The notes below the pieces were generated by a model. That model searched no databases. It saw only the letters and a list, made by a program, of their open reading frames with translations, and was not told where the DNA came from. This document shows positions 3,371 through 54,737 of a DNA stretch of 55,543 bases, piece after piece (position 1 is the stretch's first letter; each line of letters begins with the position of its first letter). A program made the translations under genes and the position numbers. The DNA is taken from IMG/VR virus record IMGVR_UViG_3300042210_000075, positions 1 to 55,543 of that record; one strand, given 5' to 3'. This DNA comes from a virus (lineage: Duplodnaviria > Caudoviricetes).

Positions 3371-3400
3371 GATATTTTTAACTCACAAGGTAAAGACCAA

Positions 3401-5479
3401 ATGACCAACCAAAATATAACTTACTACGGCAAGCTTTCGCTTGAAGAAGATCACCGCTGGAAGCTATCTGATATAAAGCCTCATGTCTCTCTACGGCTCA
3501 AACAACTATTCCCACGCATAAGCCAAGGTAAGCTTCCACCATTTTTCCTAAATGATGTATTGGATACAGCTTCAGATCTTGTTTGGTTTATGAACCGATA
3601 CCCGTTCGAGATGAACCACAGTGATGAAAAGCATCTTCACTCTCAACACAGCCTTTATCTGGATAAACAAGCTTCGAACGAAGCAATATTGAATCCAGAC
3701 TACACCCCTAAAGATCGGGTCGGATTTAAAGACGGAAAAGCATTACGACCATATCAAGCAGTTGCAGTCGATTTCGCTGAATCTGTTAAGTCAGCATTGA
3801 TACTAGATGAGATCGGATTGGGGAAAACTATCGAAGGCCTTGGATTAGCGACAATTCCTGACGCCCTACCTTTGGTCATCGTGGTTCAGCCACATCTTCA
3901 CCAACAATGGTATGAGAAAGCACTAGAGTTTATTGAAGCCAATGTACATAAAGTTGAAGGAAATAAACCTTACAGTTTGCCATCTGCCGACATCTACATA
4001 ATGAAATACAACCAGCTACCACACTGGATTGACATACTTACCCAAGGCTGGGTTAAAGGCATTGCTTTTGATGAAATTCAAGAACTCCGCCGTGGTGCGG
4101 ATGCCCTTAAGGGATACGCTGCTAAACAAATATGCCAGGCGGTTACATATAAGGTCGGCTTAACAGCAAGTCTTATCTACAACTACGGCATCGAGTCATT
4201 CAACATCGCTAGCATACTTCGTCCAGATATTCTCGGCACTAGAGAAGAATTCTTGCGTGAATGGTGCACTGAGAAAAATGATAAAGGCATAGTTAAAGAT
4301 CCCGACGCTTTAGGAGCATATCTTCGAGAGCAAAGTTTGATTATCCGTCGAACTAAAGAAGATGTCGGACAACAAGCTAAACAGTTATCGCCTCATATTG
4401 AGTGGGTTGAACACAGTTCCAAAGCAGTATCAGACCTTGAAGAACTTACAAAACAGCTGGCAATGAAAACCTTTAGCTCAGACTTTAGCGAAGCAGGTCA
4501 AGCATCGCGCGAGTTTGATTTAAAGATGCGCCAAATGACAGGTGTATCTAAAGCAAAACAAGTAGCGGCTTATGTACGTATGTTTGTGAACTCAGGTGAG
4601 CCTGTATTGCTCTATGGATGGCATAGAGAAGTTTATAACATTTGGATGAGTGAGTTAGCTGACCTTAATCCGATAATGTTTACAGGTTCAGAGACAGCGA
4701 ACCAAAAAGAAAAAGCCAAACAAAGTTTTATCAACGGTGACAGCAAAGTTTTGATCATGAGCTTGGGTTCTGGCGCTGGCATAGATGGACTTCAGCACGT
4801 GTGCTCTACCGTTGTGTTTGGTGAATTCGCATGGTCTAGCGAAATCCATAGGCAGTGCATTGGGCGCGTAGACAGGGATGGTCAACAGAAAGAAGTGTTT
4901 ACGTTCTATGTTGCTACTAACTTTGGCTCTGACCCTGAAATTATCGATGTGTTAGGTCTGAAATCAGACCAAAGCCACGGCATTATGAACCCGTATAGAG
5001 GCGGAGAAATAGCTAAGCAAACAGATTCAAACCGTATTAAAAAGCTAGCCGCAAGGTACTTAGAATCTCAGGGAATTAAGGTTCCAGAAAAAGAATCCAA
5101 ACATAAGGAAAGCACGTCAGAGAAAGACATCAACAACCTACTTTCGGTTCTTCAAACTGGTAGCTTTTCGGTGATGGATGAGAAAGTAACCCAAAGCCAG
5201 ATTGAATCCCTGCTAAATGACAACAACATCACTTTTGAAAGAGAGAAGCGGTTCCCAAGTGGGATCGTTGATTTCTTCCTATCGCAAACTGGCATTGCGC
5301 TGGAAGTAAAGGCGAACAAACAGTGGGGAAAGATGGATGTATTTAGGCAGTGCGAACGCTATTGCCAAGAGCCTGAAGTTAAAGGGCTTGTATTAGCGAC
5401 AGCGAGAATACAAGGGCTACCTAAAGAAATATCAGGTAAGCCAGCAAAAGTCTTTCAACTAAGTTTAACTGCGCTCTGA
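3401..5479 (+). CDS. SNF2-like helicase with C-terminal PD-(D/E)XK-like nuclease domain
   Basis: LRPYQ, DEIGLGKT, FDEIQ, LTAS, GAGIDGLQ, QCIGRVDRDGQ; C-terminal IVDF..ALEVK..QCERY. Confidence 0.8.
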   Translation: MTNQNITYYGKLSLEEDHRWKLSDIKPHVSLRLKQLFPRISQGKLPPFFLNDVLDTASDLVWFMNRYPFEMNHSDEKHLHSQHSLYLDKQASNEAILNPDYTPKDRVGFKDGKALRPYQAVAVDFAESVKSALILDEIGLGKTIEGLGLATIPDALPLVIVVQPHLHQQWYEKALEFIEANVHKVEGNKPYSLPSADIYIMKYNQLPHWIDILTQGWVKGIAFDEIQELRRGADALKGYAAKQICQAVTYKVGLTASLIYNYGIESFNIASILRPDILGTREEFLREWCTEKNDKGIVKDPDALGAYLREQSLIIRRTKEDVGQQAKQLSPHIEWVEHSSKAVSDLEELTKQLAMKTFSSDFSEAGQASREFDLKMRQMTGVSKAKQVAAYVRMFVNSGEPVLLYGWHREVYNIWMSELADLNPIMFTGSETANQKEKAKQSFINGDSKVLIMSLGSGAGIDGLQHVCSTVVFGEFAWSSEIHRQCIGRVDRDGQQKEVFTFYVATNFGSDPEIIDVLGLKSDQSHGIMNPYRGGEIAKQTDSNRIKKLAARYLESQGIKVPEKESKHKESTSEKDINNLLSVLQTGSFSVMDEKVTQSQIESLLNDNNITFEREKRFPSGIVDFFLSQTGIALEVKANKQWGKMDVFRQCERYCQEPEVKGLVLATARIQGLPKEISGKPAKVFQLSLTAL

Positions 5480-6880: not shown

Positions 6881-6904
6881 AGCCCCATCCTTGGGGCTTT
6901 TCTT
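6881..6904 (+). terminator. Intrinsic terminator between convergent operons
   Basis: AGCCCCA-TCCT-TGGGGCT-TTT. Confidence 0.7.
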
Positions 6905-12900: not shown

Positions 12901-14781
12901 ACGTTGTGCCGCTTCAGTAGGCCCGTCGCTAGGATTTATTGGCTGTACAGGTTGGCGCTCGTCTTGGTATTCCAGCTCATCACGAAGGGCAATGCCTTGC
13001 TCTTCTCGAACGCGCTGCGCTGCTTCCGTTGGTTGATAATCATTAGGCAAACCATATTTAGAACGAGCTTCAGCATCCATTCGCTGTTGCAAATCATCCT
13101 GCACCATCTCTTCGTTAGGCTGAGACTCGACACCCAATGTTCTCTGGTAGGCGGCATCCACATCCTGAATAAGCCCACTATCTTCATAGCGCTTCAATCG
13201 TTGGCGCAAGATCTGATCAGGTGCCAACTCAACACGGCGGTTAGCCTCAACACGGCGATCAATCGCTGTTTGAAGTGGGTCTATATTTAGTTCGGTAGCT
13301 TGGCGAGCCATATCAAATAGCTCGGCTTCAAGCTGCTCCGCATAGTCTGGGTTGGCGTCAATATCAGGGTTTGACAGTTCACGAGAGATAGATTGATAAC
13401 GATCAGGGTCATAGGCTCGTGCTAAATCCAGAACGTTTTGCTGCTCATTACGTTCAGGTAATACACCTTTTTCTTGAAGTGCTGCGCGGGTTGCTGTTCG
13501 TCTTGCTGAAAGCTCATTCTCTATCTTACGCTGCTTAGCACCGGATAGCGCATCACTGACCGCTCTGTTTGAATCATCGTGGCGATTAAGTTCAGCGTCT
13601 AGATTAGTGTTTCCTGTGATCGGCTCTTCAACCGCTCTTTGCTCTGGGCTCAACTCTTCTGGTTGAACGTCAGCCAACGGAGCCTGCACAGGTTCTGCAA
13701 TAACCGCCTCTTCCACACTCGAATTACGATTGCGACGACCAGCCATAAATCCTTCAGCACCGTTAACCGTGCCACCAAGAACACCACCGATCACGCCTTC
13801 ATTCAGCGCACTCGAAGCGACTCCAGTAGATATATCGAAGTTAGGATCAACCAAATCACGGTAAACCTCATTCGACACTAGGGCTTCAACGCCACCTTGC
13901 GAGGCTTCTTGTGTACCTTCAATAGCAAACCCTTTCGCTAAACCACCTTTAAGACTATTTGAAGGGTTGAAGATATTGCCAGTGATACCCAAACCACGAC
14001 CACCAACAGCACCAGACAAGCCACCAATGGTATTCACTGCGGTTAACTTAGGATCGTAAAAAACTCTATCCGCTGCTTGTTCAGCTAACGCATTGCGAGC
14101 GGCGACACCAATTTGCTCATCGCTATACTGTTGGTTGTTTGGGTCTTCACGAAGCTGCCAATACATCTCAGAAAATGCCGGGCTTTTTTGCAGGTCTTGA
14201 AATGACATGCTCTGGTACTTTTCTCGCTCACTATTGGCAATCATACCGTTACCAACAACAACGCTAACCGCACCGTTTGCTACTATGTCTTTCGCCTTCC
14301 CTTTGAAACCTAGCTTTGCTGCTTCTTTTGTCGCGGCAGTTTTTAAGGCTTGCTTACCTGCAGCAGTGGCGAGTAATTTCACTCCACCTTTCGCCAACGC
14401 ACCACCAGCACCACCCGTACCAAGAAAGCTACCAATAGTACCGACACCTTGGCCTAGATAGTTAAGCCATGCTCGACCGTTTAGAGCACCTTCACCAAAA
14501 GTAAGATCACCATTCTCATCTTCAGTAAAGATTTGCTGAGTAAGGGCGTTCTGGCCAGCTTCAGACATTTCAGAGACCTGTGCATCTGCTCTCTCATTTA
14601 ACCAGTTACGCATTCCACCACCGTAGCCGGTTAACTGGTCAATAGTTTCGAACGTGCCAGCCATACCCTGATAGAAACCACGCTGAACACTGTCAACGAA
14701 ATCCCCAACCATGCCTTGTTCATCAACCGAATCGTCGGGCTGTGTGCCTAAGTTTAAGCTGCGTATTGGGCTACGATACAT
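6904..14781 (-). CDS. Giant internal virion/ejection polyvalent protein (LPD-like, two HExxH-type motifs, PLxRFG domain)
   Basis: 2625 aa; KIEDFGE..GARK, FGFRGVQFGNW, SLAHEWFHALD, FHELVGHHGL, YFPLARFG; last gene of the structural operon. Confidence 0.8.
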   Translation of the reverse strand: MYRSPIRSLNLGTQPDDSVDEQGMVGDFVDSVQRGFYQGMAGTFETIDQLTGYGGGMRNWLNERADAQVSEMSEAGQNALTQQIFTEDENGDLTFGEGALNGRAWLNYLGQGVGTIGSFLGTGGAGGALAKGGVKLLATAAGKQALKTAATKEAAKLGFKGKAKDIVANGAVSVVVGNGMIANSEREKYQSMSFQDLQKSPAFSEMYWQLREDPNNQQYSDEQIGVAARNALAEQAADRVFYDPKLTAVNTIGGLSGAVGGRGLGITGNIFNPSNSLKGGLAKGFAIEGTQEASQGGVEALVSNEVYRDLVDPNFDISTGVASSALNEGVIGGVLGGTVNGAEGFMAGRRNRNSSVEEAVIAEPVQAPLADVQPEELSPEQRAVEEPITGNTNLDAELNRHDDSNRAVSDALSGAKQRKIENELSARRTATRAALQEKGVLPERNEQQNVLDLARAYDPDRYQSISRELSNPDIDANPDYAEQLEAELFDMARQATELNIDPLQTAIDRRVEANRRVELAPDQILRQRLKRYEDSGLIQDVDAAYQRTLGVESQPNEEMVQDDLQQRMDAEARSKYGLPNDYQPTEAAQRVREEQGIALRDELEYQDERQPVQPINPSDGPTEAAQRIYRDNVQQDINLNQQSIPARRDMEAARMQQESDQAVDPQQQLSDEMLNRLASERASNFSNRPASMKLREDGRKPIRDYAGMTEKTKGMSKRLKRRIQRAKGFNTNAVLSEFQNHEKRLQAFEAEAKRQAQIEAAKPENVARRKSAEALFEERMTSPQATEFKENLITEAMNSVNDIVDSSQGTVLEIDGNAVSLPEVKRQLANGVRNLANKFISKEAVMTERLRRIKQQREMQNEQMPNVQPDPESMQEEPQPQAVVQREEQSVEETQEPTSQVDDAEQELELEQQPELDEAVEPTEETEEKPVDEQPKEKIEDFGEVLHGARKHEWGKFGDAISRDMTPSEIAAEPLSKSLPKPDLKKLSEDGVSNYHLALMTVLRGMIPSKPRKGYKLERWSDSVNSVRQLSKAIMDKDSAFDSLSLHHSPMSQLLTKISDELTIDEIETLGNYEADYYNIVKRFNFKRKKSYGRHSIDAESIDALAPKAIELIRAQASDSDSKTSGTKQRVDMGIYVKRFTGDAFIGVKVGSRVVEVKSGFDSTKEARVYLGENRTALEDEVIARRKDAREQVRSGENRARDGIIEREGNVTPEDFTNAFGFRGVQFGNWVEGARRQQDLNNAYDSLVDLARLMGIPTRAISLGGKLGLAFGARGQGGRSAAAAHFEPDTFVINLTKVSGKGSLAHEWFHALDYHFGDGTNVSGRKNASAIEGLRPEMVEKWNNIKEAIHKTKLPERSSERDNYRSKPYWNTEVELVARSFETWVIEQNSHNGITNDYLANVLPDNNSSDYPYPTAQEMDQGISKAYSEFAQSLRTEVDAKGNVSLYSLYRASVRPVISDPKKEEVQAFVKDIFKGSPDLAHAETMVEVVSSERYLPNRIQYQIFNDGVEGKVNGLYDPESKKVYLIADKIPSKEHAERFIFHELVGHHGLRSLFGDDIKNELANIRNMIGGKSGVLKLARSMGVDLSQYVDMTNNAVSNNEISTEQADFILFDELLAHVAERNQLQSAVGKLITKIKAWLRRHGFNTLASYGKSDLMELLTNIRTSLNNPPPTTPPSGKSRVNYSLSGDTRPDVDKVLNTKQKNLVKRIKAAISGFAPIEALGRNKYAMLTLRQMGEVAGFIDKNLEMMIDGYQQEVNSMISTQNTLAEEAATISDELSNWAKKNRKAADQLFEFAHDATLADVDPSKPFASRTEELTTEKQRLERAYKEYGGSNSDRGRAIYEELKEVRDLLKQEPNRQKDHLRLKPIWGRLNAEQKAKFREMRDYYIKQGERFDKALEENINRAVQDQKIRKEMLAKLRQRQELRAKGLYFPLARFGDYWIDFADKNGERQYMMFESKAEMETARDNLRDAGFEVKSGMKAQGNEGQQVSLPFVADVLDLIRSSKMNQHNADTLADQVYQMYLRTLPGRSLRRNFIHRKGVEGFSNDAIRVLADNGFKQSRQQARLDHMDILDNHLVAIKKYADSSSDNAEISRITEEMDKRHEWVRNPQRSAWAQKLTSIGFTWLLGLTPAAALVNLTQNLQVAIPVLGSKHGFAKSSYMMANTSKEFLSNATALLSGKDKKRGYGVMGNFLKGEELEAFRTAVKQGVIDVTQAADLAGLAENPNAKYSGTWNKAMNIIGWAFHNAEVFNREVTFMSAYRLAKEKFGDHQKAIDQAIKDTWESHFDYTSTNRARFMQSDLAAVALQFKQYSQNMTYYLWSNLAKSLKGETPEVKAQARKQLLSTLAMTFGIGGLGALPLSALVIAADAAQAAFGDDDEPWSAEVELKAMLSDAVGKENAALLWYGSLPSISGRISLNDLWVRSIDRDIDTDEKYMEYIKQGLGPVVGGIGFSFAQGLSDIGDDFGIRSAEKMSPKVVKDMLKMARYINEEGVFTRTGAQVVGDMSPVELAGQALGFSSGRANIQYDENNAAKNYEAHLTKRRSQLMNGYYTAYRLGDKQALSQVMEQIAKWNQSKYGRMNPITSKAIQTSIKARVKNLQKTSSGVRINDKYRSLLTDYDYF

Positions 14782-15940: not shown

Positions 15941-16165
15941 TTATTGGAGCGCCAATATAATCGCCAACTTCGTTGACTCATACAGCTCAGCGATAGCAGG
16001 AAAGCCACCACCAGTGTATGCAATTAAAGCGTCGTAATAAGGTGATAACTGATAACGTATTGCACCGAAGGCAAACAGTACTACAAAAACGAAAACAGCT
16101 AACATTGTTGGTTCTTGAATGAAATAATCACGCAGTTTAGAAAACATGAGTGCATCCTTGGTCAT
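15941..16165 (-). CDS. Small membrane protein (moron)
   Basis: GAGG RBS; hydrophobic stretch. Confidence 0.6.
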   Translation of the reverse strand: MTKDALMFSKLRDYFIQEPTMLAVFVFVVLFAFGAIRYQLSPYYDALIAYTGGGFPAIAELYESTKLAIILALQ

Positions 16166-16235
16166 AACCTCGCACTCAGTTTAGATGCTTACGTGCTTAT
16201 GAATCTAGTCTCAACTTCAAATTAACAACAATTCG

Positions 16236-20341: not shown

Positions 20342-20575
20342 CTAAACAGAGATTCCAAACCGATCCAGAACGGATTGGTTTATTTCTTCTTCAAACCTCC
20401 ATACAGGCTCAATGTAGCCACTATCTCCTTCTGTTAGCGAAGAATCGTAGCCATCAGGATATACAGCATCGTCATATCGAACGGTAATTGTTGCCATTTC
20501 GATAATTTGGTCTCTTGTAAAATCACTTGCTTCAAAATCCGATCTTGAGTTAATAATTTTTACCTTGCCTCGCAT
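20342..20575 (-). CDS. Hypothetical protein following the DGR RT
   Basis: 77 aa, GGAG RBS, overlaps RT end. Confidence 0.6.
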   Translation of the reverse strand: MRGKVKIINSRSDFEASDFTRDQIIEMATITVRYDDAVYPDGYDSSLTEGDSGYIEPVWRFEEEINQSVLDRFGISV

Positions 20576-21552
20576 AGTTGCGTCTCCAATTTGGCTATTA
20601 AATTCTTACTATCTGCCCACTTTGCATGCCCAAGCCATGAGGCAATAAACCTACGTAGCTTTTCTGCTTGCTGTTTTTTTGTGTATTTTCTGATCTTTCG
20701 CTTTGCTGTGGTTACTGATTGTTTTCGCATCAGCTTGTGTGTTGGCCAGATCCGGTATCCAAGAAAATTTACACCTTGATTTGCATTAGTGACGGACCAC
20801 TTCGAGAGTTTTAATTTCATCTCATCAATACAGAATTTCTCGAACCTATCTTTAAGCTCCAGCATTTCTGATTTACTCCTACCAAAGATAACTATGTCGT
20901 CCATATATCTAATAAAGTTCTTACTCTTTGCTATGTGCAAAATCCACTCATCAGCGATAGTTCCGTACACATTGGCAAACAATTGACTGGTCAAATTGCC
21001 GATAGGGATCCCAGTTCCGCTGGATGGAATAAACTTCTCTATAAGTTCCAGCGTGCGTTTGCATGATATTTTTGCTCTCACCCTTGTATGCAATATTTCT
21101 CTGTCAATGTTGTAGAAGTAGCCTGAGAAATCTGTTTTCAAAACCCATACATCGCCAGACTTTAGCAGCCTTCTCATCGTAGCCTGACAGGCTATTGCTC
21201 CAGAATGCGTACCTTTCCCTTTGATGCATCCATAGCTCTGCCTGTAAAACGTTGATTCAAAGATGGGCTCAATGATGTTGTTGATTGCATGTTGGACAAC
21301 CCTATCCCTAAACGGCAAGGCTGAAATTAATCTTCGTTTTGGCTCATAAATAAAGAATTCTTTAGGCTTTCCGGGTTGATATGCTCCACTCAAAATCAAA
21401 TCAGAAAGCACCAATGAGTTTGACTCTAGGTAATCCATATAAACCATTCCACCAACGCTATTTGCGTTTCCTTTTCTTGCTTTCATTGCGGCAGTGACAA
21501 TATTGTCATAGCTCGCTATGTCGCCAATAAGATGTTTGTACTTTCTTCCCAT
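20560..21552 (-). CDS. brt: DGR reverse transcriptase
   Basis: FRDRVVQHA, TDFSGYF, GIPIGNLTSQ (DGR-type SQ), RYMDD, FLGY; no maturase or endonuclease domain. Confidence 0.95.
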   Translation of the reverse strand: MGRKYKHLIGDIASYDNIVTAAMKARKGNANSVGGMVYMDYLESNSLVLSDLILSGAYQPGKPKEFFIYEPKRRLISALPFRDRVVQHAINNIIEPIFESTFYRQSYGCIKGKGTHSGAIACQATMRRLLKSGDVWVLKTDFSGYFYNIDREILHTRVRAKISCKRTLELIEKFIPSSGTGIPIGNLTSQLFANVYGTIADEWILHIAKSKNFIRYMDDIVIFGRSKSEMLELKDRFEKFCIDEMKLKLSKWSVTNANQGVNFLGYRIWPTHKLMRKQSVTTAKRKIRKYTKKQQAEKLRRFIASWLGHAKWADSKNLIAKLETQLCEAR

Positions 21553-21687
21553 GTTATTACGTTCGACTTTCCCTTTTGGTACTCACCTACTGTAAATCTC
21601 GCAATGTATTCGCCGAAGCAGGTTAACGCAGCTGACCACAGTAGTGGTCGCCTAGTATGCCTTAGCATATCTAGCGCGAATAAAATT
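21553..21687 (-). ncRNA. DGR spacer (sp) RNA region
   Basis: Between TR and RT; hairpins GACCAC/GTGGTC and TATGC/GCATA; 12-nt complement to the avd-TR linker. Confidence 0.7.
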
Positions 21688-39552: not shown

Positions 39553-39870
39553 TTAAGATTTATTTCGCTTTTCACCCGCAATTGTTATCTCGATGACAGC
39601 AATTGTTGGTTTGAGCTGATGTTTGCCGAAAGGAATGCGGTGCTGCTTTAACACCTCAAGAACGCTATCCACCAAGTTATCTGGCAGACCTTTACGCAAA
39701 TATTGACGCATCTGTTCTTCAGCCCTTTTCAAGCGGATGCAAAGCATCGTAAAAGCTTCATCCTGCTCTTTGCCTAAAGTTGACGCGTACAGTTTTACCG
39801 CTTGGCGGAAACCAAGCCCTGCGAGCTCTTGATACTTTTCAGGGTATTTCTGACTTGCTGTTAGTCGCAT
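39553..39870 (-). CDS. Hypothetical protein
   Basis: ATG 39870, 2 nt after the upstream stop. Confidence 0.55.
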   Translation of the reverse strand: MRLTASQKYPEKYQELAGLGFRQAVKLYASTLGKEQDEAFTMLCIRLKRAEEQMRQYLRKGLPDNLVDSVLEVLKQHRIPFGKHQLKPTIAVIEITIAGEKRNKS

Positions 39871-39872
39871 AC

Positions 39873-39986
39873 TCACGCTCGCTTTGAGCAATAGATGCTA
39901 AGGAATACAGAAGACACTTGCTGAAGTGTGCCTCCCCAGTGCTTAAGCCTTAACGCTTGAAGCTTGGTTTGTTGTGATTTGGTCAT
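39873..39986 (-). CDS. 37-aa small ORF (not in ORF track)
   Basis: AAGGA RBS within CACAAGG-AAAA-GACCA motif; MTKSQQTKLQALRLKHWGG.. Confidence 0.5.
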   Translation of the reverse strand: MTKSQQTKLQALRLKHWGGTLQQVSSVFLSIYCSKRA

Positions 39987-40022
39987 TGGTCTTTTCCTTG
40001 TGAATTGAAAGATGAAAATGAA

Positions 40023-40068
40023 TTCATCGAACGAGACAATAATAGTTCACAAAAGAGGAAAACATCAA
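40023..40068 (-). promoter_or_regulatory. Promoter with operator over the transcription start
   Basis: TTGATG-18-TATTAT followed by TGTCTCGTTCGATGAA. Confidence 0.55.
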
Positions 40069-42094: not shown

Positions 42095-42912
42095 AGTCCA
42101 GCACCCATCATTTCAAAGCGGTGTTTTTGTTGACGGTATGCGAACGTCATCATGCTTGTTTCTTCGGAGCGACCAGTCTTATCCATAAAAGCTTGAATGC
42201 CTTCTTTGTTGAACAGCTCGACCTCCGCAGGTGTCATGTAATGACCAAACCGCTTTTCGCAATTGAGTAAAGGTTTCACTCTCTCATCTTGTGTCACATC
42301 TACATGTTGAGTTGATGGGACATGCCAAGCCACACATCGAACAGTACTTAGAGGGATGTTAAGAGCATTGGAAATATGTTCAGGCATGTAACCTTGATCG
42401 TGAAGCGCAGATATAACAGCTCGGTCATAGGCTGATACTTTTGAACGATGATGATCTGAAGCTAGCTTTTTAAATGACAGTCCATTTCTCTTACAGACTT
42501 TGCATAGAGTCGCAACACTATAACCAAGCTCTTGAGCCGCGAGCTTCACGGTCACTTTTCTCTCAATCATCTGCTTTATTTGAAAGACTAGTGCCTCTTC
42601 ATTTTCGATATGCTGATAGCGATTTAACGATAGTTTTTTACGTCTTGATGTAACTGAACCATGAGTAGTGTTCATTTCGCTTGCTATGGCGACGTCGGAC
42701 AGACCAGAGTTAAATAGTGATCTCAGTTGATCGTCTTCCCATGAGAACCACAACATATTCCCCTTATATAGCTGCCCCATCATAGAAGAAATGTATTCAA
42801 CACAAACTTGTTCATGCTTTCCTTCAAAAATCATAAGCGCCAATAGCTTTTCTTTATCTTCAGTCGTATTGACGAGTTCTTTTATTTTTTCGGATTGGTA
42901 TCTATTGGTCAT
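42091..42912 (-). CDS. Multi-HTH DNA-binding protein
   Basis: Three HTH-like segments (GLSDVAIASEM, AAQELGYSVATL, ISNALNIPLSTV). Confidence 0.65.
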   Translation of the reverse strand: MTNRYQSEKIKELVNTTEDKEKLLALMIFEGKHEQVCVEYISSMMGQLYKGNMLWFSWEDDQLRSLFNSGLSDVAIASEMNTTHGSVTSRRKKLSLNRYQHIENEEALVFQIKQMIERKVTVKLAAQELGYSVATLCKVCKRNGLSFKKLASDHHRSKVSAYDRAVISALHDQGYMPEHISNALNIPLSTVRCVAWHVPSTQHVDVTQDERVKPLLNCEKRFGHYMTPAEVELFNKEGIQAFMDKTGRSEETSMMTFAYRQQKHRFEMMGAGL

Positions 42913-42961
42913 TTGGTCATACCTTGTTTCTTAATGCGGGTGCGAGACCCGCATGTTTGAA

Positions 42962-43963: not shown

Positions 43964-43990
43964 GTATTTTCCTTTTGGTCTTGGTTATGG

Positions 43991-44683
43991 TCATTTACCT
44001 TGTGAGAGCTTCTTCAGACTCTCTATCCTTTCGGATAACTTGTGCGTTTTACCGCTTCTTGAATATTCCTCCCTTGCTTTGTCTGTTACAGCTATCGATG
44101 TGTGCCTAGGTAGCGCTCTTAGCTCTTCTTCAGCCAGTATCAAGTTGCCGCGCTTTTCCAATTCATCCGCTTGGCGTAGATACTTGGTGTATATATCCAA
44201 CTCAGTGCCAGCGCTCGCTCGCCTTAAGTTCCAATCCGCATTGCTGATAACCCATTTTTCAGCTCTTCCTTGAGGCGTATTACTGAGAAACCTTGAGTAA
44301 GCCTCTTCGACTTCTGTTTTTGTTCTCTGGTCTACAGCGGTAATGAACTCACCAAGTACCGGAGGAAAAACGACGCCATTGGATAACCGGCTATGGCAGA
44401 TCACGAACATTCGGTTTATCTGTAATTCACCTAGCCCGTTTAAGAATCGAATCCACTCTTCACTAGGCTCAGCTCCGTGAATACTCACCCACAACTTCCC
44501 GTACAAACTCACCATCATCTTCCAGCTGTGAAGACTCGTGGAGGTAAGAACGTTGGATTGCGGTAAGTGACTCTTTAACCGCTGGGGCATCGTTTGGTTT
44601 AATTCGGTAGTGCTCTGGGAATTTCGACTGATCGGCAAACTCTCCGTAAGCTTGGTTATGTTGGTTGGCTGGCCCATATCCAT
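43991..44683 (-). CDS. Replication P-like / helicase-loader-position protein (true start may be ~44518)
   Basis: W.MM.SLYGKLW.S.HG..PSEEW..FPPVLGEF; follows initiator. Confidence 0.6.
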   Translation of the reverse strand: MDMGQPTNITKLTESLPISRNSQSTTELNQTMPQRLKSHLPQSNVLTSTSLHSWKMMVSLYGKLWVSIHGAEPSEEWIRFLNGLGELQINRMFVICHSRLSNGVVFPPVLGEFITAVDQRTKTEVEEAYSRFLSNTPQGRAEKWVISNADWNLRRASAGTELDIYTKYLRQADELEKRGNLILAEEELRALPRHTSIAVTDKAREEYSRSGKTHKLSERIESLKKLSQGK

Positions 44684-45395
44684 GTGCTCCTGACTGATTC
44701 ATCTTTGCATCAAGTTGAGCGAACTTTTCTCGTAGCTTGGTAGGGCTAAGAATGTTCGCTTTCCAGAAACTGTCTTCGTTGGCAAATTTGAAAACAGTAG
44801 CGATCACCTTGTGAGTGAGCTTGTCGCGCTCTCGCATTAAGCGGATGACATCAGCCCAATCATTCAAATTAGCTTTTGCATGAGGAGTAACTTCCTGAAC
44901 TTTTTCGAACATCCATTTCGCTAGCTTCAAATCGTCACTAGAAAATTTTTGATCTTTTTCAGACAAGGAGTATTTAACTTCAGTAGTTACTTTAAGATCA
45001 GTAGTTACTTGTGTCGGCTTAGCCGGATCTGGCTTAGCCGTATTACGGCTTTCACGGATTAGGGTATCCTCTTCCGGCTTTTCCGTAATAGGGTAATCCT
45101 GAACGATGTAGATTGTTGACCCATCACCCTGCTTAACTCGCTCGCAAAACTTAGCTTTGATCAACTCGTTCAAAATGCCATAGACACCATCGCGGCCAGT
45201 TCGCTTCTCAGTTCCTTGGGTTACTTTCATCAAGTGAGAGGCCGAAACTTCCCAGTTATCAGGCTTGCTTAAGAGATAACTGAGCATGCCCATAGCCTGA
45301 AAGCTAAGAACGTTATCCCTAAAAACGTCATTCGAGATTCTTGTGAAATTGTCGACTTTTCGCTTGCGGCGGATCGTCGTTGTGGAGCTGCTCAT
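44469..45395 (-). CDS. Replication initiator (O-like)
   Basis: NFTRISN..LSFQAMGMLSYLLSKPDNW N-terminus; DSFWKANILSPTKLREKF C-terminus; internal iterons. Confidence 0.85.
   Translation of the reverse strand: MSSSTTTIRRKRKVDNFTRISNDVFRDNVLSFQAMGMLSYLLSKPDNWEVSASHLMKVTQGTEKRTGRDGVYGILNELIKAKFCERVKQGDGSTIYIVQDYPITEKPEEDTLIRESRNTAKPDPAKPTQVTTDLKVTTEVKYSLSEKDQKFSSDDLKLAKWMFEKVQEVTPHAKANLNDWADVIRLMRERDKLTHKVIATVFKFANEDSFWKANILSPTKLREKFAQLDAKMNQSGAHGYGPANQHNQAYGEFADQSKFPEHYRIKPNDAPAVKESLTAIQRSYLHESSQLEDDGEFVREVVGEYSRS
44980..45100. repeat. Iteron cluster / putative origin inside initiator gene
   Basis: YGGCTT-N3-CG at 45015, 45030, 45046, 45075; TAGGGTA x2; CAGTAGTTACTT x2. Confidence 0.6.
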
Positions 45396-45437
45396 ACCTG
45401 CCCCCTGATTATCGACCAATACCTAGCCACAGGCTTG

Positions 45438-45530
45438 TTGACTAACACGGTGTAATGCATATAATTTCTCTTGTTATTTGGTGCTTAAGCACCGGCTTCT
45501 AAGAAACCGCCCGCTACGGCGGTTTTTTTT
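45438..45530 (+). ncRNA. oop-like small antisense transcription unit
   Basis: TTGACT-16-TATAAT (45438-45465), GGTGC-TTAA-GCACC hairpin, terminator 45504-45530. Confidence 0.55.
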
Positions 45531-45834
45531 ATTTCTGCTAGATCAATGCCTTTCTTTTAAAAAATTCACTGCCAAACATGGCCTTCTGAAGTGCATCAAT
45601 GCATTTAGGGTGTGGCGGTGCTCTGCGAAGCCTGCCGATGGCTATAGGTCGCCGGTAGGTGACAAACTTCCCGCCACACCTAAAAACACTGAAATTGATT
45701 AATTTATTGGGTTACTAGAGTTCAGAGCGAAGTAACAACCAACAGAATAATATCTTTGATCGTTACATTTAATGTGTCAACAATGGAATTTATTGATTTG
45801 TGATTTAGCTTAATCGAGATTCACTTCAAGAATA

Positions 45835-45850
45835 CTGTATAAAAACACAG
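45835..45850. promoter_or_regulatory. LexA (SOS) box
   Basis: CTGT-ATAAAAAC-ACAG, perfect CTGT-N8-ACAG. Confidence 0.8.
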
Positions 45851-45886
45851 TTTGTTGCAGAGTTAGAATTGTTCGATAATTATTTT

Positions 45887-45902
45887 TGCAACGTATGAGA
45901 CA
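45887..45902. promoter_or_regulatory. Putative repressor operator upstream of cI
   Basis: TGCAACGTATGAGACA, 12/16 match to palindrome TGTCTCGTACGAGACA. Confidence 0.55.
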
Positions 45903-45948
45903 TATTAAATAATTCCACGTTGGACAAATAATAATAAAACGAGGTTAT

Positions 45949-46662
45949 ATGACTGACCAAAAGAAAGGACCAGGTAGACCGGGGAGAACAGTCTCACCTA
46001 AAGACTACTCTGTGATCGCGACAAACATAGACCGACGCATGCAGGATCTCGGGATAAAGACCAAAGTACAACTCGCCGCAATAAGCGGGGTGTCAAGAAC
46101 GGTAATCACGAACATATTCATCATGCCAAACAAAGGTGTGATGGCAGAGTCAGCCGTTAACCTTGCCAAAGCTTTAGAGTGCAGGGTTGAATGGCTTATT
46201 TCTGGAGAAGGCCCTGTGACTGAAGATGATATATTTGGAGCTCCAATTCTTACCTTTGAAGTATTGGAATCCCTTTCATCACAACAGATAACAGCGGTTA
46301 TAGAAAGCGCAAGGCAAGACCCAACAGTAAAGAAAGCGCCATGCCCTACAGGCTACGGGAATATGAATTTTGCTGTAGCACTAGACTCAAACATTAACTT
46401 TGAAGCTAGTAAAAAGTACAGAAAGTACGAACAGGGTGGTATTGCTTTTTTTGAGAGCCAGAAGAAACCACGCTCCGGAGAACTTGTTCTTGCTCTACCT
46501 TTAGAATCAGGCACGCCAGCAGTAATGGAATATTCCAGTGCTCATAGTAAAGCCTACCTAAGCGTACTAAACGACAATTTTACTGAGTCTATTCGAACTG
46601 TTGAGCTAGCAGGACAAATGGAAATTTTAGGAACATTCATAGGCTACTCTTACACAGCATAA
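45949..46662 (+). CDS. CI-like XRE repressor with degenerate S24-like C-terminal domain
   Basis: QLAAISGVSRTVIT..LAKALECRVEWLISGEG HTH; divergent from replication operon. Confidence 0.8.
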   Translation: MTDQKKGPGRPGRTVSPKDYSVIATNIDRRMQDLGIKTKVQLAAISGVSRTVITNIFIMPNKGVMAESAVNLAKALECRVEWLISGEGPVTEDDIFGAPILTFEVLESLSSQQITAVIESARQDPTVKKAPCPTGYGNMNFAVALDSNINFEASKKYRKYEQGGIAFFESQKKPRSGELVLALPLESGTPAVMEYSSAHSKAYLSVLNDNFTESIRTVELAGQMEILGTFIGYSYTA

Positions 46663-46784
46663 CCCGCCTCAAAATACCCTTTCGATAAATCCGCAGACAT
46701 GTTCATTGCATTCTGCGGATTTTTATTTTAGTGACAAAAGTCACGAAAGCTCAAAAACCGATCAAATTTTATTTAAGTCTAGCC

Positions 46785-46830
46785 TTCACAAATAGGGTTA
46801 TTATGTTTATATTGTGTCTCGTACGTGTCA
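46785..46830 (+). promoter_or_regulatory. Early promoter with operator (46815-46830)
   Basis: TTCACA-17-TATATT followed by TGTCTCGTACGTGTCA. Confidence 0.65.
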
Positions 46831-46845
46831 TTTTGAGATACAGAC

Positions 46846-46943
46846 AAAGAAAACCCCGCACTAGGCGGGGCATTCACAAGGTTATGACCAAACCGTGATT
46901 ACTCAGGGCTGGACATGTGACGAGGCGACCAAACCTCATCACT
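46846..46943 (-). ncRNA. Predicted multi-target antisense sRNA
   Basis: Extended -10 TGTTATTAT (46951-46959), two hairpins exposing UUUGGUCG and UGGUCAU, terminator CCCCGC/GCGGGG-TTTTCTTT. Confidence 0.65.
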
Positions 46944-46994
46944 AGCCAGAATAATAACATACATCGTAAACGTCACAAGCAGAGGATGAGCCTA

Positions 46995-47900
46995 ATGACG
47001 GTATTTCCTAAAAACCTCTTGGTGTACAAAGCAAAAGAAGGCTTCTCGATTACTGAAGAAGACCTCAAGCGTTGTCTTAGTGACTTCGCATTTGTTGACT
47101 GTGGACCTAGTGATAAAGCTAAAACAGGTTGGCTATCTCCATTTAGTACAGAGCACATGTACCATTGTCATGGTACTCAAGACTTTCTTCTCAAGTACTG
47201 CAAACAAGAACGCAAGATCAACGCTTCTGCGTTCAACCAAATGCTTACTCGAACCGTGTCAGCAATGGAAGAAGAAGACGGCCACCCTCTCAACAAGCGC
47301 CAGAAAGACCAAATCCGAGATGAACTTCTCAGCGATATTCTTCCTAATGCACTCCCGGTTAATGATTACATCAATTTGTACATCATTGAATCAGGTAAAT
47401 ACATTGCCATCGATTCAGCGAATCACAACAAAGCAGAAACCGTACTTGCCCTACTTCGCAAGTCTCTAGGCTCTTTACCAGTTATTCCACTGCTCGGTGA
47501 TACACCTGCGGAAACCGTGATCACTGAGTGGGTGCGTTCTGGTGAAACTCCTGCAGGTATCGTTCTTGGCAATAGCGCTAAGCTCAAGTCGATTTTGGAT
47601 GATGGACCTATTATCGGTGTTAAAAGCGCTGATCTCTCTTCAGAAGAAATCCAAGCCCACATTGCCCATAACGCAATGGTTCGTGAAGTAGGCATCGATT
47701 TTCAAGATCGTGTTGCGTTCAGCCTTACGGATGGAATGCAAATCAAAGGACTTAAGTTCTCTGACGAAATCAAAGATCAGAATGAAGACATTCCAAAAGA
47801 AGATGTATTGGCTCGTCTTGACGCTGACCTTGCTCTGGTATTTGGTGAAATCAAAACATTAATTGCCACCGTCTTTAGCTCGTTCTCTAAGGCTAAGTGA
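46995..47900 (+). CDS. rdgC: Recombination-associated protein RdgC
   Basis: FPKNLLVY, KTGW, ELL..LP.A, LLRKSLGSLPVIP, IKGLKFSDE, RLDADLAL. Confidence 0.9.
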   Translation: MTVFPKNLLVYKAKEGFSITEEDLKRCLSDFAFVDCGPSDKAKTGWLSPFSTEHMYHCHGTQDFLLKYCKQERKINASAFNQMLTRTVSAMEEEDGHPLNKRQKDQIRDELLSDILPNALPVNDYINLYIIESGKYIAIDSANHNKAETVLALLRKSLGSLPVIPLLGDTPAETVITEWVRSGETPAGIVLGNSAKLKSILDDGPIIGVKSADLSSEEIQAHIAHNAMVREVGIDFQDRVAFSLTDGMQIKGLKFSDEIKDQNEDIPKEDVLARLDADLALVFGEIKTLIATVFSSFSKAK

Positions 47901-48732: not shown

Positions 48733-48766
48733 CCGCCACCAGCGGCATTCACAAGGAACAGACCAA

Positions 48767-49041
48767 ATGACCACTCAAACGACACAACATGGAGTTACGA
48801 CATTTCGCAACTCGCAAGAAGCATTCATTCACAAGCATGTTTCTCAAATCCTCACCAACAAAGGACATGAAGCATCTGATGTAAAACGTGCAGCTAATTT
48901 CGCCGTTGATACTTATCGAAACACTGCATCATTCGGTGGTTCTAGGGGGGGAAGTGTTTCGACTACTGCCTTGCAAAAGCTGAACAATTGCTTTCACCAG
49001 TGAAAAAGCAAGCTGCAAAAAACGCGCGCAAGTCTAAATAA
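48767..49041 (+). pseudogene. Phage protein apparently frameshifted at a G7 tract
   Basis: One extra G at 48945-48951 would give GGKCFDYCLAKAEQLL.. ending at TAA 49041. Confidence 0.5.
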
Positions 49042-49084
49042 GCATAAGTCACGACTTAACAATCTATACACAAGGTAATGACCA

Positions 49085-49381
49085 ATGACCAAATGTAATT
49101 GCTTCAATGAGATGCTTGAGAAAGTCGAGCTCTCGGTAAAAGAACAACTTAAAGACACACCAATGGTTGAGGGCTCACTCAAAATTGATTGGCAGAACAG
49201 AGTTTTCTTCATCGATGGCAAACCATCAGCCCCAATTGCTCTTTATGTAAATACAGAATACCAACCATTAAAGAGAAACGGTGAACCAATGAAGAACAAG
49301 AGAAGCCGTCAATATGGCTTAAAGTTGTCTCATTGCCCTTTCTGTGGACACGAGTACGCATCTCAGGAGTCTGCAGCATGA
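49085..49381 (+). CDS. Zinc-ribbon phage protein
   Basis: CNC at N-terminus, CPFCG at C-terminus. Confidence 0.65.
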   Translation: MTKCNCFNEMLEKVELSVKEQLKDTPMVEGSLKIDWQNRVFFIDGKPSAPIALYVNTEYQPLKRNGEPMKNKRSRQYGLKLSHCPFCGHEYASQESAA

Positions 49382-51231: not shown

Positions 51232-51506
51232 GCATGAGAGAAGTATTCGGTGACCAAATCGATAAAGAGAGCTTCGGTAAAACTCTAAGCGGTGCTCTTG
51301 TTCTTGTTGGTCCTCAAAAAGAAGCTGGCGCACTAGCTATCAAATGCCATGACCACCTGACAGAAACACTAGAACGGTTTGTTAATTACTACTGTGACGC
51401 TGTTCATTCTGGCGATTGGGGCAATTGGAACCCTGAAGAAGATCAGGTAGTCATCGAGGCAAGAGCAGCTTTAAAAATGACTAAAGGAGCTCTCAATCAT
51501 GGTTAA
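51228..51506 (+). CDS. Hypothetical phage protein
   Basis: GGAGG RBS; SGDWGNWNPEE..ARAAL. Confidence 0.65.
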   Translation: MSMREVFGDQIDKESFGKTLSGALVLVGPQKEAGALAIKCHDHLTETLERFVNYYCDAVHSGDWGNWNPEEDQVVIEARAALKMTKGALNHG

Positions 51507-52071
51507 AGTAACTAAATCACAAGCAGAGCTTTACCAAGTTCGTCATGAAACCTTCGAAGGTTGGGGTGATATCCACCTAGTTTGCGGTGAGCAATCCGTA
51601 AGCGTGGTAATTCATTCAGATTACGGCACGTTCGCTAAGTATTGGTCCCATTGTGGGTGTAATCCAAAAAAGTTCTTGGTTGATCTGGATTTTGATTACT
51701 GCATGAAGAACCTCACAGATTATAAGCACTACATCAAGGCTCCTGAGCAGTACCCGACCGAAGTCAAAGGGCGAATTATTGAGGCTCGTCGTGCTGAAAA
51801 CTTAACGAAAGAAGAAGCGCGAGAAGCTTGGTGCGATATGCTTCAAACGGAATTTGACGAAGGAGACTTGTATTTCAAAGAACTCATCGATCACCATTTG
51901 TTCAATAAAGTTTTTGGTGATTATGAGTACTTACCATGCGCGAAAAAAATTGACCCGTGCTGTCAGGAGCTTTGGGAAATGGTCTGGTTGCCTTTTGTAG
52001 AGAGGCTTAAATCTGAACTTAACTTGGTTAGTTCGCTAGACCAACTAGCAGGTAAGTTAGCATGGAAGTAA
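51499..52071 (+). CDS. Hypothetical phage protein
   Basis: AAGGAG RBS; SDYGTF..W..G. Confidence 0.65.
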   Translation: MVKVTKSQAELYQVRHETFEGWGDIHLVCGEQSVSVVIHSDYGTFAKYWSHCGCNPKKFLVDLDFDYCMKNLTDYKHYIKAPEQYPTEVKGRIIEARRAENLTKEEAREAWCDMLQTEFDEGDLYFKELIDHHLFNKVFGDYEYLPCAKKIDPCCQELWEMVWLPFVERLKSELNLVSSLDQLAGKLAWK

Positions 52072-52427
52072 AAGTTGAAGCCAAAACATTCCCAGACCGT
52101 ATCGAGTTAACACAAAGTTTCGAAGACCCTCATTTTTCGCGCGACCCGATAGTCAATATGCACCGTGAGATTTTGAAGCTAAAAGACGCGGTAGTTCGGG
52201 ATGCTCTTATATCTCTTGGTTGGACGCCACCAGAAGAAAACAATAAATACATTGAAGCACTAAAGCGAATTGCTAATCCAATAGAGTTCATGCAACGAGA
52301 AGCAAAGCAAAACGGTGATGAGCTAAACGGTAGAGCGGCAATTTTACTTAGTAATGATGCGCAGTATCTAAAGGATATAGCTAAAGAGGCTTTAACAGGA
52401 TTAATCGAGGCGAGTAATAAGTCATGA
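52062..52427 (+). CDS. Hypothetical phage protein
   Basis: ALISLGWTPP; ALKRIANP. Confidence 0.6.
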   Translation: MEVKVEAKTFPDRIELTQSFEDPHFSRDPIVNMHREILKLKDAVVRDALISLGWTPPEENNKYIEALKRIANPIEFMQREAKQNGDELNGRAAILLSNDAQYLKDIAKEALTGLIEASNKS

Positions 52428-53316: not shown

Positions 53317-54534
53317 TCCTGCCAATGAAACCCTCACTGCGCTATTTTCAACAATGTGTTTACTCCACCAGCTCATCATCTTACGTCGAAGTTCAAACCA
53401 ATCTGAGCGGTTATAGGCGCCACGTATACGGTCGTCATCGCCATGAGCAAGCGCAGCTTCAATAACATCCTTATTGAATTCCGCTTCATTGAGTGTAGTT
53501 GAAGCTAACGAGCGCAAACCATGAGCACATGTGCGATCAACAAACCCTGCCCTACGCAATGCCCGGTTCAATGTTTCTGAGTCAGTATGCTTGGATGGAG
53601 CTCGAACCGAAGGGAAAATAAATTCTCGGTGACTGCTGATCGGCTTAACAGCCTCAAGGATAGACATTACTTCATCGGTTAACGGGACACGGTGATCACG
53701 GTCCATCTTCATTCGCTCTGCAGGAATAGTCCAAACCTTCTCATTAAAGTCTATCTCACTCCATGAAGCGCCAGCTGCTTCAACAGGACGAACCATCGTG
53801 TGAAGCTGGAATTCGAATAAGCATCGAGTAGCAAAGTACATATTGCTGGTGGACATCTTCTGCATGAGCTCTGGAAGCTCTTCAGGTTTAAGCGCTGGTA
53901 AGTTCTTGGACTTTGGTTTTCTGAATGCTGCGGCAATACCAGACAACGGATTGTGATGTATAAGGCCACTATTCACTGAATACACCATGACCGAGTTCAA
54001 GATGGCGCAAACACGCTTAACGGTTTCAAGTAGCCCTTGTTTCTCGATACCTCGTAGTGCCGCGATAGCTTGGGGGGCTGTGATTTGATTTACAGGAAGC
54101 TTGCCTAAGGCAGGGTAAACATACTTACGAAGTTTTTGAGTGTGGCCAGCAAGTGTTTTTTCACTCACAGTATCCTTTTTAGTATCGAGCCACATTTCAG
54201 CAACGCGTTCCAAAGAACTGTTTTGCTCTTCAGATAATACCGCTCTTTCAGTTTCACGCTGAATCTGTGGATCAATACCTTCGGCTACTTGCTTTCTAAA
54301 TCGAGTAGCAATCTCTCTAGAATCTGCCAAAGAATAAGTTGGATATGGGCCAATGCCCAAGTTAGTAACCTTCCCGTTGATTGGACGAACGTAACGGAAG
54401 ACCCAAGACTTTGAGCCGGTCTTTCTAACGAATAAATACAAACCTCCGCCATCAGATAACTTGTAGTCCTTATCTTTGATCTCGGCAGTCTGCACAGAAC
54501 GTGCGGATAGCTTGTTAATACTTCTCTGTGCCAT
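53314..54534 (-). CDS. int: P4/CP4-family tyrosine integrase
   Basis: YKLSDGGGLYL..GSKSW..GPYP..SLA arm domain; VRP.E, RMK, HGLR, LAH, GAY catalytic residues. Confidence 0.95.
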   Translation of the reverse strand: MAQRSINKLSARSVQTAEIKDKDYKLSDGGGLYLFVRKTGSKSWVFRYVRPINGKVTNLGIGPYPTYSLADSREIATRFRKQVAEGIDPQIQRETERAVLSEEQNSSLERVAEMWLDTKKDTVSEKTLAGHTQKLRKYVYPALGKLPVNQITAPQAIAALRGIEKQGLLETVKRVCAILNSVMVYSVNSGLIHHNPLSGIAAAFRKPKSKNLPALKPEELPELMQKMSTSNMYFATRCLFEFQLHTMVRPVEAAGASWSEIDFNEKVWTIPAERMKMDRDHRVPLTDEVMSILEAVKPISSHREFIFPSVRAPSKHTDSETLNRALRRAGFVDRTCAHGLRSLASTTLNEAEFNKDVIEAALAHGDDDRIRGAYNRSDWFELRRKMMSWWSKHIVENSAVRVSLAG

Positions 54535-54536
54535 AA

Positions 54537-54737
54537 AGTAACACACCTTTTATTTGGTCATAACGCTTGTGAAGGTGTGTGTTACTTATTGCTGGCTACG
54601 CTATTAAAACCAAACGGTTAGCAAGATTCCCTTGCGCCAAAACAGGTTCAAAATTCGGTAGTAAATTAGATATCAGAAACAGCAAAAAGTAACACATCAG
54701 CCATCGGCTAGTATAATGTGTTACTTAGCGTGTTACT
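54537..54737. promoter_or_regulatory. Five TGTGTTACT-type boxes (putative arm sites)
   Basis: At 54537(-), 54578(+), 54688(-), 54717(+), 54729(+, CGTGTTACT). Confidence 0.65.

Follow-up and report, generated by a model that had tools for sequence, protein, structure and literature searches.

A conserved candidate small-RNA gene in a provirus may reach several early-gene start regions through a shared motif

We analyzed the window, a complete 55,543-base provirus record from IMG/VR, and propose, with a probability of roughly one half, that its minus strand at 46846-46943 is a small-RNA (sRNA) gene whose RNA would pair with several early-gene starts and block ribosome entry. Within this reading, the sRNA gene itself is well supported by comparison across lineages, and repression of multiple targets by the candidate is plausible. 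The proposal is built on transcription signals, their conservation, the enrichment and placement of a start-region motif and a strand asymmetry in folding, from which we infer a transcript, pairing in vivo, repression and its timing. The unit is rare and was found in four diverged prophage lineages: those of the window, G245 (Vibrio sp. TBV020), G402 (a 53.7-kb provirus) and G071.

The prophage hosting the sRNA unit may well be a lambdoid-type phage of Vibrionaceae with the unit as part of its immunity region, an assignment that we consider an even call. The local landmarks are as follows.

45949..46662, plus strand: cI-like repressor gene, adjoining the unit in all four lineages
46785..46813, plus strand: sense early promoter TTCACA-17-TATATT, then TGTCTCGTACG (promoter scan); its transcript leader is the proposed cis target of the sRNA
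46846-46960, minus strand: unit under study, between the cI-like gene and rdgC
46995..47900, plus strand: rdgC, first gene of the sense operon (ATG 46995; Shine–Dalgarno sequence at ~46981)

Because of the surrounding gene order, we place the unit in the leader of an early operon that starts just past the repressor gene. After rdgC come an MT-A70 methylase gene and about ten further plus-strand genes, up to the integrase gene and a tRNA-Ser, and the divergent minus-strand arm carries a replication O-like gene, an NA37/YejK-type gene and genes for an HTH protein, an HNH protein and a DHH phosphoesterase. The rdgC Shine–Dalgarno sequence lies ~38 nt past the sRNA 5′ end; an ATG at 46986 in the rdgC start region is missing in the related viral sequence L014. 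A promoter region homologous to 46785..46813 was seen in L231, G245, G402 and G071, and the promoter region upstream of the unit has, in every lineage, a shared -10 box and the word TGTCTCGTWCG or a near variant.

Other features of the prophage were recorded alongside. TGTCTCGTWCG follows three promoter-like -10 boxes in the window (46815-46825 on the plus strand, 40028-40038 and 45892-45902 on the minus strand, one of them with a single mismatch) and also the sense promoter in L231, G245 and G402, with a near variant in G071; judging by sequence, it may be a common operator half-site or a conserved transcript 5′ end. The palindrome ACTGTATAAAAACACAGT at 45834-45851, between the cI-like gene and the divergent promoter, has the form CTGT-N8-ACAG and resembles a LexA box. 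On the minus strand, 45420-45880 holds no open reading frame (ORF) of at least 25 aa between the divergent promoter region and the O-like gene; it contains a long GC-rich hairpin, GGUGUGGCGG...CCGCCACACC (z -3.3), then a terminator-like hairpin, and could represent either a structured leader or a second regulatory RNA that replaces a cro/cII pair. On the plus strand, an OOP-like unit at 45438-45532 has a near-consensus promoter, TTGACT-16-TATAAT (11/12), and then a stretch of ~65 nt that contains two hairpins together with a strong terminator (fold z -4.1); located directly upstream of the O-like replication gene, the unit runs antisense to the early leader of the minus strand. Farther away, an Rfam Phage_DGR RNA match (21556-21677, minus strand, 74.2 bits) beside a 330-aa ORF (20560-21552) indicates that the prophage carries a diversity-generating retroelement, and a 2625-aa ORF (6904-14781, minus strand) is 73% identical to an ORF of the G245 prophage and 37.5% identical to a G402 ORF over the best matched stretch.

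The elements of the unit were assigned by promoter and terminator scans and by folding.

46973..46978, minus strand: -35 hexamer TTGTGA (promoter scan, 9/12 matches), inside the DNA of the rdgC start region
46951..46959, minus strand: TG-extended -10 TGtTATTAT (promoter scan), with a 16-nt spacer to the -35
46846..46943, minus strand: predicted sRNA of ~98 nt, its 5′ end placed from the -10 position
46917..46942, minus strand: SL1 (fold), 10-bp stem with loop UUGGUC (46927-46932), complementary to GACCAA
46884..46916, minus strand: SL2 (fold), stem sequestering UUGGUCAU; an equivalent with G-U pairs is predicted in all four lineages
46871..46883, minus strand: single-stranded seed AACCUUGUGAAUG, complementary to CAUUCACAAGGUU and spanning the AAGG Shine–Dalgarno sequence of the targets
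46846..46870, minus strand: intrinsic terminator CCCCGC-CUAGU-GCGGGG, then UUUUCUUU (terminator scan and fold)

The scans thus agree with the first-pass annotation, made from the window sequence, which had noticed a minus-strand extended -10 followed by a ~100-nt unit ending in an intrinsic terminator: the promoter reads TTGTGA-16-TATTAT with the TG extension, and the minus-strand hairpin 46871-46853 is followed by the T-run TTTCTTTG. No minus-strand gene lies upstream of this terminator. The predicted sRNA folds at -43.2 kcal/mol, with z-scores of -5.6 to -6.1 relative to shuffled sequences. In the fold, each of the six SL1 loop bases UUGGUC has an unpaired probability of about 1.0, and ACCUUGUG has a mean unpaired probability of 0.76 to 0.86 in three lineages and is unpaired in the minimum free energy (MFE) fold of G071. 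A second hairpin proposed earlier, UCACGGUU[UGGUCAU]AACCUUGUGA, did not hold up: with it the window RNA reaches -34.8 kcal/mol versus the MFE of -43.2, which is 8.4 kcal/mol worse, its 5′ arm as drawn is absent in G402 and G071, and the conserved fold pairs UUGGUCAU elsewhere and leaves ACCUUGUG single-stranded.

The cis overlap of the RNA is confined to the early-operon leader and reaches neither a coding end nor a ribosome-binding site, the unit ending at ~46943. A gathering-threshold Rfam scan of the window returned Phage_DGR (21556-21677) alone and no family at the unit; at E ≤ 10, a scan of 45350-47050 gave sub-threshold matches alone, driven by the terminator, and among the matches there was no Rfam phage RNA family, including the C4/CI immunity RNA family. 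A search of sequencing runs turned up no RNA run containing the stretch, and reads of the two runs that it listed match solely 47107-47298 and 47619-47777 inside rdgC and are uninformative on expression. Two peptide candidates were rejected: the 21-codon minus-strand frame of the window lacks an AUG in G245 and G402, and the plus-strand MTKP mini-ORF has 16 codons and differs in G402.

The sequence exposed by the predicted RNA recurs, as its complement, at gene starts. The bipartite motif CACAAGG-N3-5-GACCA has six exact copies in the window, at 3384, 46875, 48750 and 49069 on the plus strand and at 39987 and 43988 on the minus strand, compared with a mean of 0.01 in 100 shuffles, none of which reached six. 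This agrees with the earlier observation of a two-part motif recurring in sense orientation at starts. All six copies are in sense orientation to local genes, at or beside start codons; the copy at 46875 lies inside the minus-strand unit. At five of the six, a second GACCA overlaps the start codon, which reads ATGACCA in context, and AAGG precedes the ATG by 9 to 10 nt. The ATG-ACC-A starts and tandem GACCA words reported earlier were likewise recovered: six ORFs at the sites begin ATGACCA, and five of the seven GACCA-N1-6-GACCA tandems in the window are at motif sites.

Full-length duplex folding was uninformative because the GC-rich terminator pairs with anything, and we replaced it with a seed-only scan using a 24-nt seed stretch on both strands of the whole window. 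The best match was the cis site, followed by exactly the eight trans sites that had been named earlier (-24.3 to -29.8 kcal/mol), so that all nine named sites, with the variants at 16158, 42913 and 54554, rank at the top. Ten sites including the cis site reached -24 kcal/mol or better, compared with a mean of 0.8 for five shuffled seeds. Two partial matches noted previously at the cI start and at 52960 (-20.8 and -20.0, respectively) are background, shuffled seeds giving 4 to 18 sites at -20 or better. The trans sites, with predicted duplex energies in kcal/mol, are listed below.

3384..3408, plus strand: target at the start of an SNF2-type helicase gene (ATG 3401), tandem GACCAA; -25.3
16158..16174, minus strand: variant site GCGAGGTTATGACCAAG at the start of a 74-aa ORF (ATG 16165); -26.2
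39979..40002, minus strand: target at the start of a 37-aa ORF (ATG 39986), ~30 nt downstream of promoter-like TATTAT-TGTCTCGTTCG; -26.0
42905..42928, minus strand: target (AACAAGG variant) at the start of a 273-aa HTH protein (ATG 42912); -24.3
43988..44004, minus strand: target overlapping the stop codon of ORF 43991-44683 and 24 nt upstream of the NA37/YejK-type gene (start 43963); 18 nt identical at the orthologous G245 site despite differing flanks; -28.4
48750..48773, plus strand: target at the start of a 78-aa ORF (ATG 48767), 13-nt match GCATTCACAAGG plus tandem GACCA; -27.3
49069..49092, plus strand: target at the start of a 98-aa ORF (ATG 49085); -27.9
54554..54571, minus strand: variant site CACAAGCGTTATGACCAA upstream of integrase, within the loop of an inverted repeat; -29.8

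Three side observations concern these sites. The inverted repeat that flanks the motif variant upstream of the integrase gene (54525-54590, minus strand) has 14-bp arms, AGUAACACACACCUU and AAGGUGUGUUACUU, and a fold z of only -1.8; the AAGG in its 3′ arm could be the int Shine–Dalgarno sequence. Many motif copies have a GC-rich sense-strand hairpin without a U-run 3 to 10 nt upstream, as at 42928, 46875 and 48750 in the window, 14819 and 13730 in L260 and 14460 in L257; such hairpins could be processing sites, insulators or antisense terminators. At 39553-39986 (minus strand), the motif-bearing 37-aa ORF overlaps a 112-aa ORF that follows it in a different frame, a pair that is kept in G402.

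AAGG is also a Shine–Dalgarno core, and we considered whether the start-region likeness is ordinary Shine–Dalgarno and start-codon context without regulatory meaning. This reading is in keeping with the lack of enrichment of CACAAGG alone (10 found, 6.3 expected) and with the host 16S rRNA tail region, which holds AACAAGGTAG. The bipartite motif, at six copies where 0.01 are expected, speaks against it, as do 15 to 18-nt blocks conserved within diverged flanks and the clustering of the motif in four prophages, not in host genomes, together with its absence from ten related phage loci. We regard this explanation as highly improbable. The 16S rRNA 3′ region of G245 (L318) reads GTCGTAACAAGGTAGCC and has 8 to 9 nt in common with the motif, which makes it partly complementary to the seed of the sRNA; the likeness is probably a coincidence of Shine–Dalgarno-like sequence.

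Conservation of the unit across lineages argues for a maintained RNA gene. The window lineage includes the near-identical G403, L230 and L231 and a 95%-identical viral contig (L011, L013, L014); L231, one of two metagenome contigs, has a diverged promoter region upstream of the unit. In G245, the unit is 82 to 83% identical to that of the window, with homology beginning at the terminator T-run. The G402 unit is identical in genome G261, and the G071 unit was found solely by a covariance model of the first three lineages (46.9 bits), which gives the model matches in four lineages. A cI-like gene precedes the unit by 150 to 200 nt in every lineage, and the cI-like proteins are 36 to 40% identical. 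The window and G245 have structural genes in common; G402 and G071 share little besides the cI-like, MT-A70 and 112-aa proteins.

Elsewhere, searches yielded few relatives. BLAST of the unit against 401 Vibrionaceae genomes gave G245 as the sole real match, the other 43 matches being 22 to 44-nt pieces, mainly of the terminator. Among 50,697 GenBank phage records there was no true match to 46780-46995, three hits covering ~30 nt of the terminator hairpin, and a wider 6-kb query of the same records gave gene-level matches only. A 16-mer pattern scan of genome contigs returned chiefly chance matches, the true relatives in a two-loop pattern scan were L011 and L195 (viral) and L153 (genomes) alone, and a hairpin-plus-CACAAGG pattern scan added no new relative. 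Five other viral records with the tandem pattern were rejected as chance, having one copy each.

MAFFT and covariance-model alignments misplace the stems of G402 and G071, and we therefore used per-sequence folds instead of paired-column counts. On the sRNA strand, all lineages have the same fold plan: SL1 with loop UUGGUC, a longer SL2 with 3′ arm UUGGUCAU, a single-stranded (A)ACCUUGUG and a GC-rich terminator with a U-run. Loop UUGGUC and seed CCUUGUG are invariant in the four lineages. G402 and G071 have SL1 stems of unrelated sequence; in SL1 of G245 an A-U pair is replaced by G-C, and L014 has a G-C to G-U change on the sRNA strand that would be an A-C mismatch on the other strand. A TGn-extended -10 is located 5 to 8 nt before the SL1 base in all four lineages, reading TGtTATTAT in G245, TGtTAATAT in G402 and TGgTAATAT in G071. 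The -35 is identical in G245 and, as read by eye, TTGAAC in G402 and TTTACT in G071. The promoter scan listed an own promoter opposite a message for the window and G245, which share its sequence; the G402 and G071 promoters are 8/12 plus TGn by eye and not scan-listed. An intrinsic terminator follows ~100 nt downstream of the promoter on the same strand, listed by the scan in the window, G245 and G071 and seen in G402 from the fold alone.

The motif accompanies the unit. ACAAGG-N3-5-GACCA clusters within the prophage in every lineage, on early-gene start regions: G402 has six copies and none of a reversed-pattern control (10 to 11 with the looser A[CA]AAGG), 7 of 14 genome hits in G245 fall inside ~45 kb of prophage and 4 of 12 in G071 within 12 kb. 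Across lineages, a start codon follows nearly all copies at a distance of 6 to 10 nt, and the copies are in sense orientation on both divergent arms. The genes behind them are mostly non-homologous between lineages (only four homologous pairs, one consisting of overlapping frames), which argues that the tag is kept independently of the gene. Orthologous sites of the window and G245 retain 15 to 18-nt identical blocks within otherwise diverged flanks. The motif occurs in none of ten loci of phages with a YejK homologue (39 to 59% identity) and without the unit. In G245, a second site repeats 25 nt of the seed side, after which comes a hairpin that carries CGACCAAA in its loop and has a stem unrelated to that of SL1; by its sequence, we read this hairpin as a predicted kissing partner for SL1.

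Covariation of loop and target, put forward in the first-pass annotation as a check, gave a mixed picture. The spacer is 3 nt in the G071 sRNA copy and in all three of its targets, and 4 nt in the sRNAs and most targets of the other lineages. By pairing energy, the own-lineage seed was the best binder for the G245 and G402 target sets and not for those of the window and G071 (two of four sets). In four of five G402 targets an A replaces the C that precedes ACAAGG in the sRNA copy, and the G071 targets lack the second GACCAA. Overall, seed–target covariation across lineages is only modest. The annotation had also read the locus as one trans-acting sRNA repressing genes in several operons. The four-lineage comparison backs an sRNA gene that is complementary to a conserved motif of start regions, and expression and repression in trans are the parts that we infer.

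Since every motif copy is in sense orientation and sits on an mRNA start region, the functional strand could instead be the plus strand. A protein, either a RegA-type translational repressor or a nut/boxB-type factor, would then recognize the motif and the hairpin loops AUGACCA and CGACCAAA as RNA sites, with the early leader carrying high-affinity copies and the minus-strand promoter and terminator being incidental. The leader does show the same words in plus-strand hairpin loops, and a candidate protein exists: the 112-aa protein (39553-39891), present in all four lineages and without a Pfam or PHROG match, is with the cI-like and MT-A70 proteins one of the only proteins common to all four. 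The folds point the other way. In all five sequences compared, the MFE of the whole unit is lower on the minus than on the plus strand, by 5.5 to 11.5 kcal/mol (-43.2 versus -33.4, -40.4 versus -30.1, -51.7 versus -40.2, -46.1 versus -40.6 and -36.8 versus -30.9), and in three lineages the z-scores are -6.1 versus -3.7, -5.1 versus -3.2 and -5.9 versus -5.4. The minus-strand folds contain 3 to 6 G-U pairs, which are mismatches on the plus strand, where G-U pairs number 0 to 1. There are two exceptions, namely SL1 of G402, which by itself folds better on the plus strand (-16.2 versus -13.9), and one G245 substitution beside the second loop of the earlier reading, which is a wobble on the plus strand only. 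The U-run after the terminator hairpin is present on the minus strand only, in four lineages, and the TGn-extended -10 keeps its distance to SL1 in all four even where flanks are unrelated. The protein reading leaves this strand asymmetry, the one-sided terminator and the conserved extended -10 without explanation. In addition, the proteins scanned contained no RNA-binding domain, the other early leader has no CGACCAAA hairpin, and the three window copies of that word are at chance level. A nut/put-type version was rejected because a second copy is missing from the other early leader. We consider a plus-strand protein site improbable.

A further alternative accepts the sRNA and restricts its action to cis. 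The RNA would act on the early-operon leader in the style of OOP or sar, through duplex formation, RNase III cleavage and promoter interference, and the repeated motif would be a start-region cassette kept for another reason, for instance as a short homology patch for swapping early genes between phages, the copy in the sRNA gene being one family member. Motif sites do coincide with mosaic junctions. Near 3384, the upstream Rha-like genes of the window (2600-3370) and G245 (51375-52142) are 71% identical and the genes past the motif unrelated; at window 48750 and G245 8811, the upstream genes are 56.5% identical and the downstream ORFs unrelated. Homology of G245 and L231 to the window likewise starts or shifts at the unit edge. 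At orthologous sites, the window and G245 have spacers that match each other and not the sRNA, and the cross-lineage energies show little covariation. Given the position of its sites at mosaic joints, the tag may also, or instead, act as a recombination patch. Set against a purely cis role are the predicted duplexes of -24 to -30 kcal/mol, with 7 to 16 contiguous pairs on the Shine–Dalgarno sequence and AUG, which an expressed RNA could hardly avoid forming in trans. Relatives without the unit also lack the motif, and the G245 target hairpin showing CGACCAAA would be useless as a recombination patch. We hold the cis-only alternative to be unlikely, albeit a serious contender.

Under the preferred reading, in which the sRNA pairs with several early-gene starts, transcription would begin from the TG-extended -10 promoter, whose -35 lies within the DNA of the rdgC start region, and stop at the intrinsic terminator ~25 to 35 nt inside the early-operon leader, downstream of the cI-like gene. 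The RNA would present two accessible elements, the SL1 loop UUGGUC and the single-stranded ACCUUGUG(AAU) before the terminator, complementary to GACCAA and CACAAGGU, respectively. These would pair with GACCAA around the start codon and with CACAAGG(U), which holds the AAGG Shine–Dalgarno sequence; the target order 5′-CACAAGG ... GACCAA-3′ would fit antiparallel pairing with the seed toward the 3′ end of the sRNA and the SL1 loop toward its 5′ end. The early-operon leader would be matched perfectly in cis; in trans, five to eight start regions, located on the two divergent early arms and close to int, would each pair at 14 to 17 of 18 positions. Such pairing would cover the Shine–Dalgarno sequence and start codon, and the expected effect is therefore a translational block. 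Within a lysogen, the role of the RNA would be to silence leaky early messages or those of an incoming phage. Once the prophage is induced, the strong early transcript, running toward the sRNA promoter, would interfere with that promoter, and the perfectly complementary leader of the transcript would act as a sink that titrates the RNA.

More tentatively, the motif could be a portable regulon tag. One sRNA would then silence every early gene bearing the 16 to 25-nt tag CACAAGG-N4-GACCAA-ATGACCA and provide a second immunity layer that includes acquisitions at mosaic joints and heteroimmune relatives. With the tag at these joints, genes gained there by recombination would fall under sRNA control at once; with the unit common to phages that differ in their cI and operator regions, a lysogen would also silence heteroimmune relatives. 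This extension is possible, if doubtful. If true, the prophage would have an internal RNA regulon consisting of one conserved sRNA and a dedicated tag on five to ten start regions in both early arms, amounting to a second, cI-independent layer of lysogeny control with possible cross-immunity. It would also suggest how new genes get wired into phage regulation.

By analogy, the closest known systems in logic are the P1 c4 and P4 CI RNAs. The c4 RNA of P1 and P7 and the CI RNA of P4 are immunity RNAs cut from a same-strand transcript that act at one or two sites of one operon, where pairing covers a ribosome-binding site or causes early termination. They resemble the candidate in being immunity-region RNAs with two separate recognition elements, presented as loops against short repeated message sites; the window RNA differs in lying on the opposite strand with its own promoter and in having sites on both arms. 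Control of many early starts by one regulator also has a precedent in T4 RegA, a translational repressor that shuts down many early messages via their start regions, but RegA is a protein and the candidate here an RNA. To our knowledge, known phage antisense RNAs act at one or two nearby sites, and none of the papers listed by full-text literature searches was seen to describe a phage sRNA with a repeated start-region tag.

Among characterized phage RNAs, VpdS of Vibrio phage VP882 is Hfq-bound, acts in the lytic phase and has several phage and host targets, as described in the review PMC12197685. Unlike the window RNA, VpdS has no reported dedicated start-region motif. The BTP1 prophage antisense RNA STnc6030 is made in the lysogen, blocks a phage message and confers superinfection immunity, with the tailspike as its single target (PMC12197685); it lacks the repeated target tag of the window RNA. 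Of the RNAs listed in this review, OOP, sar, sas, aQ, STnc6030 and others each have one target, and VpdS has scattered targets without a dedicated tag (PMC12197685). Lambda OOP and P22 sar are described there as cis-antisense RNAs of temperate phages, each overlapping one target, the cII 3′ end and the ant start, respectively (PMC12197685). Like them, the window unit encodes a short predicted RNA that would act by base pairing, has a promoter and an intrinsic terminator of its own and lies antisense to an early message, within or next to the immunity region; an OOP-like unit is separately present at 45438-45532. Unlike OOP and sar, its cis overlap is an untranslated leader, ending ~38 nt before the Shine–Dalgarno sequence of the first gene, and the same bases of the RNA also match five to eight dispersed start regions.
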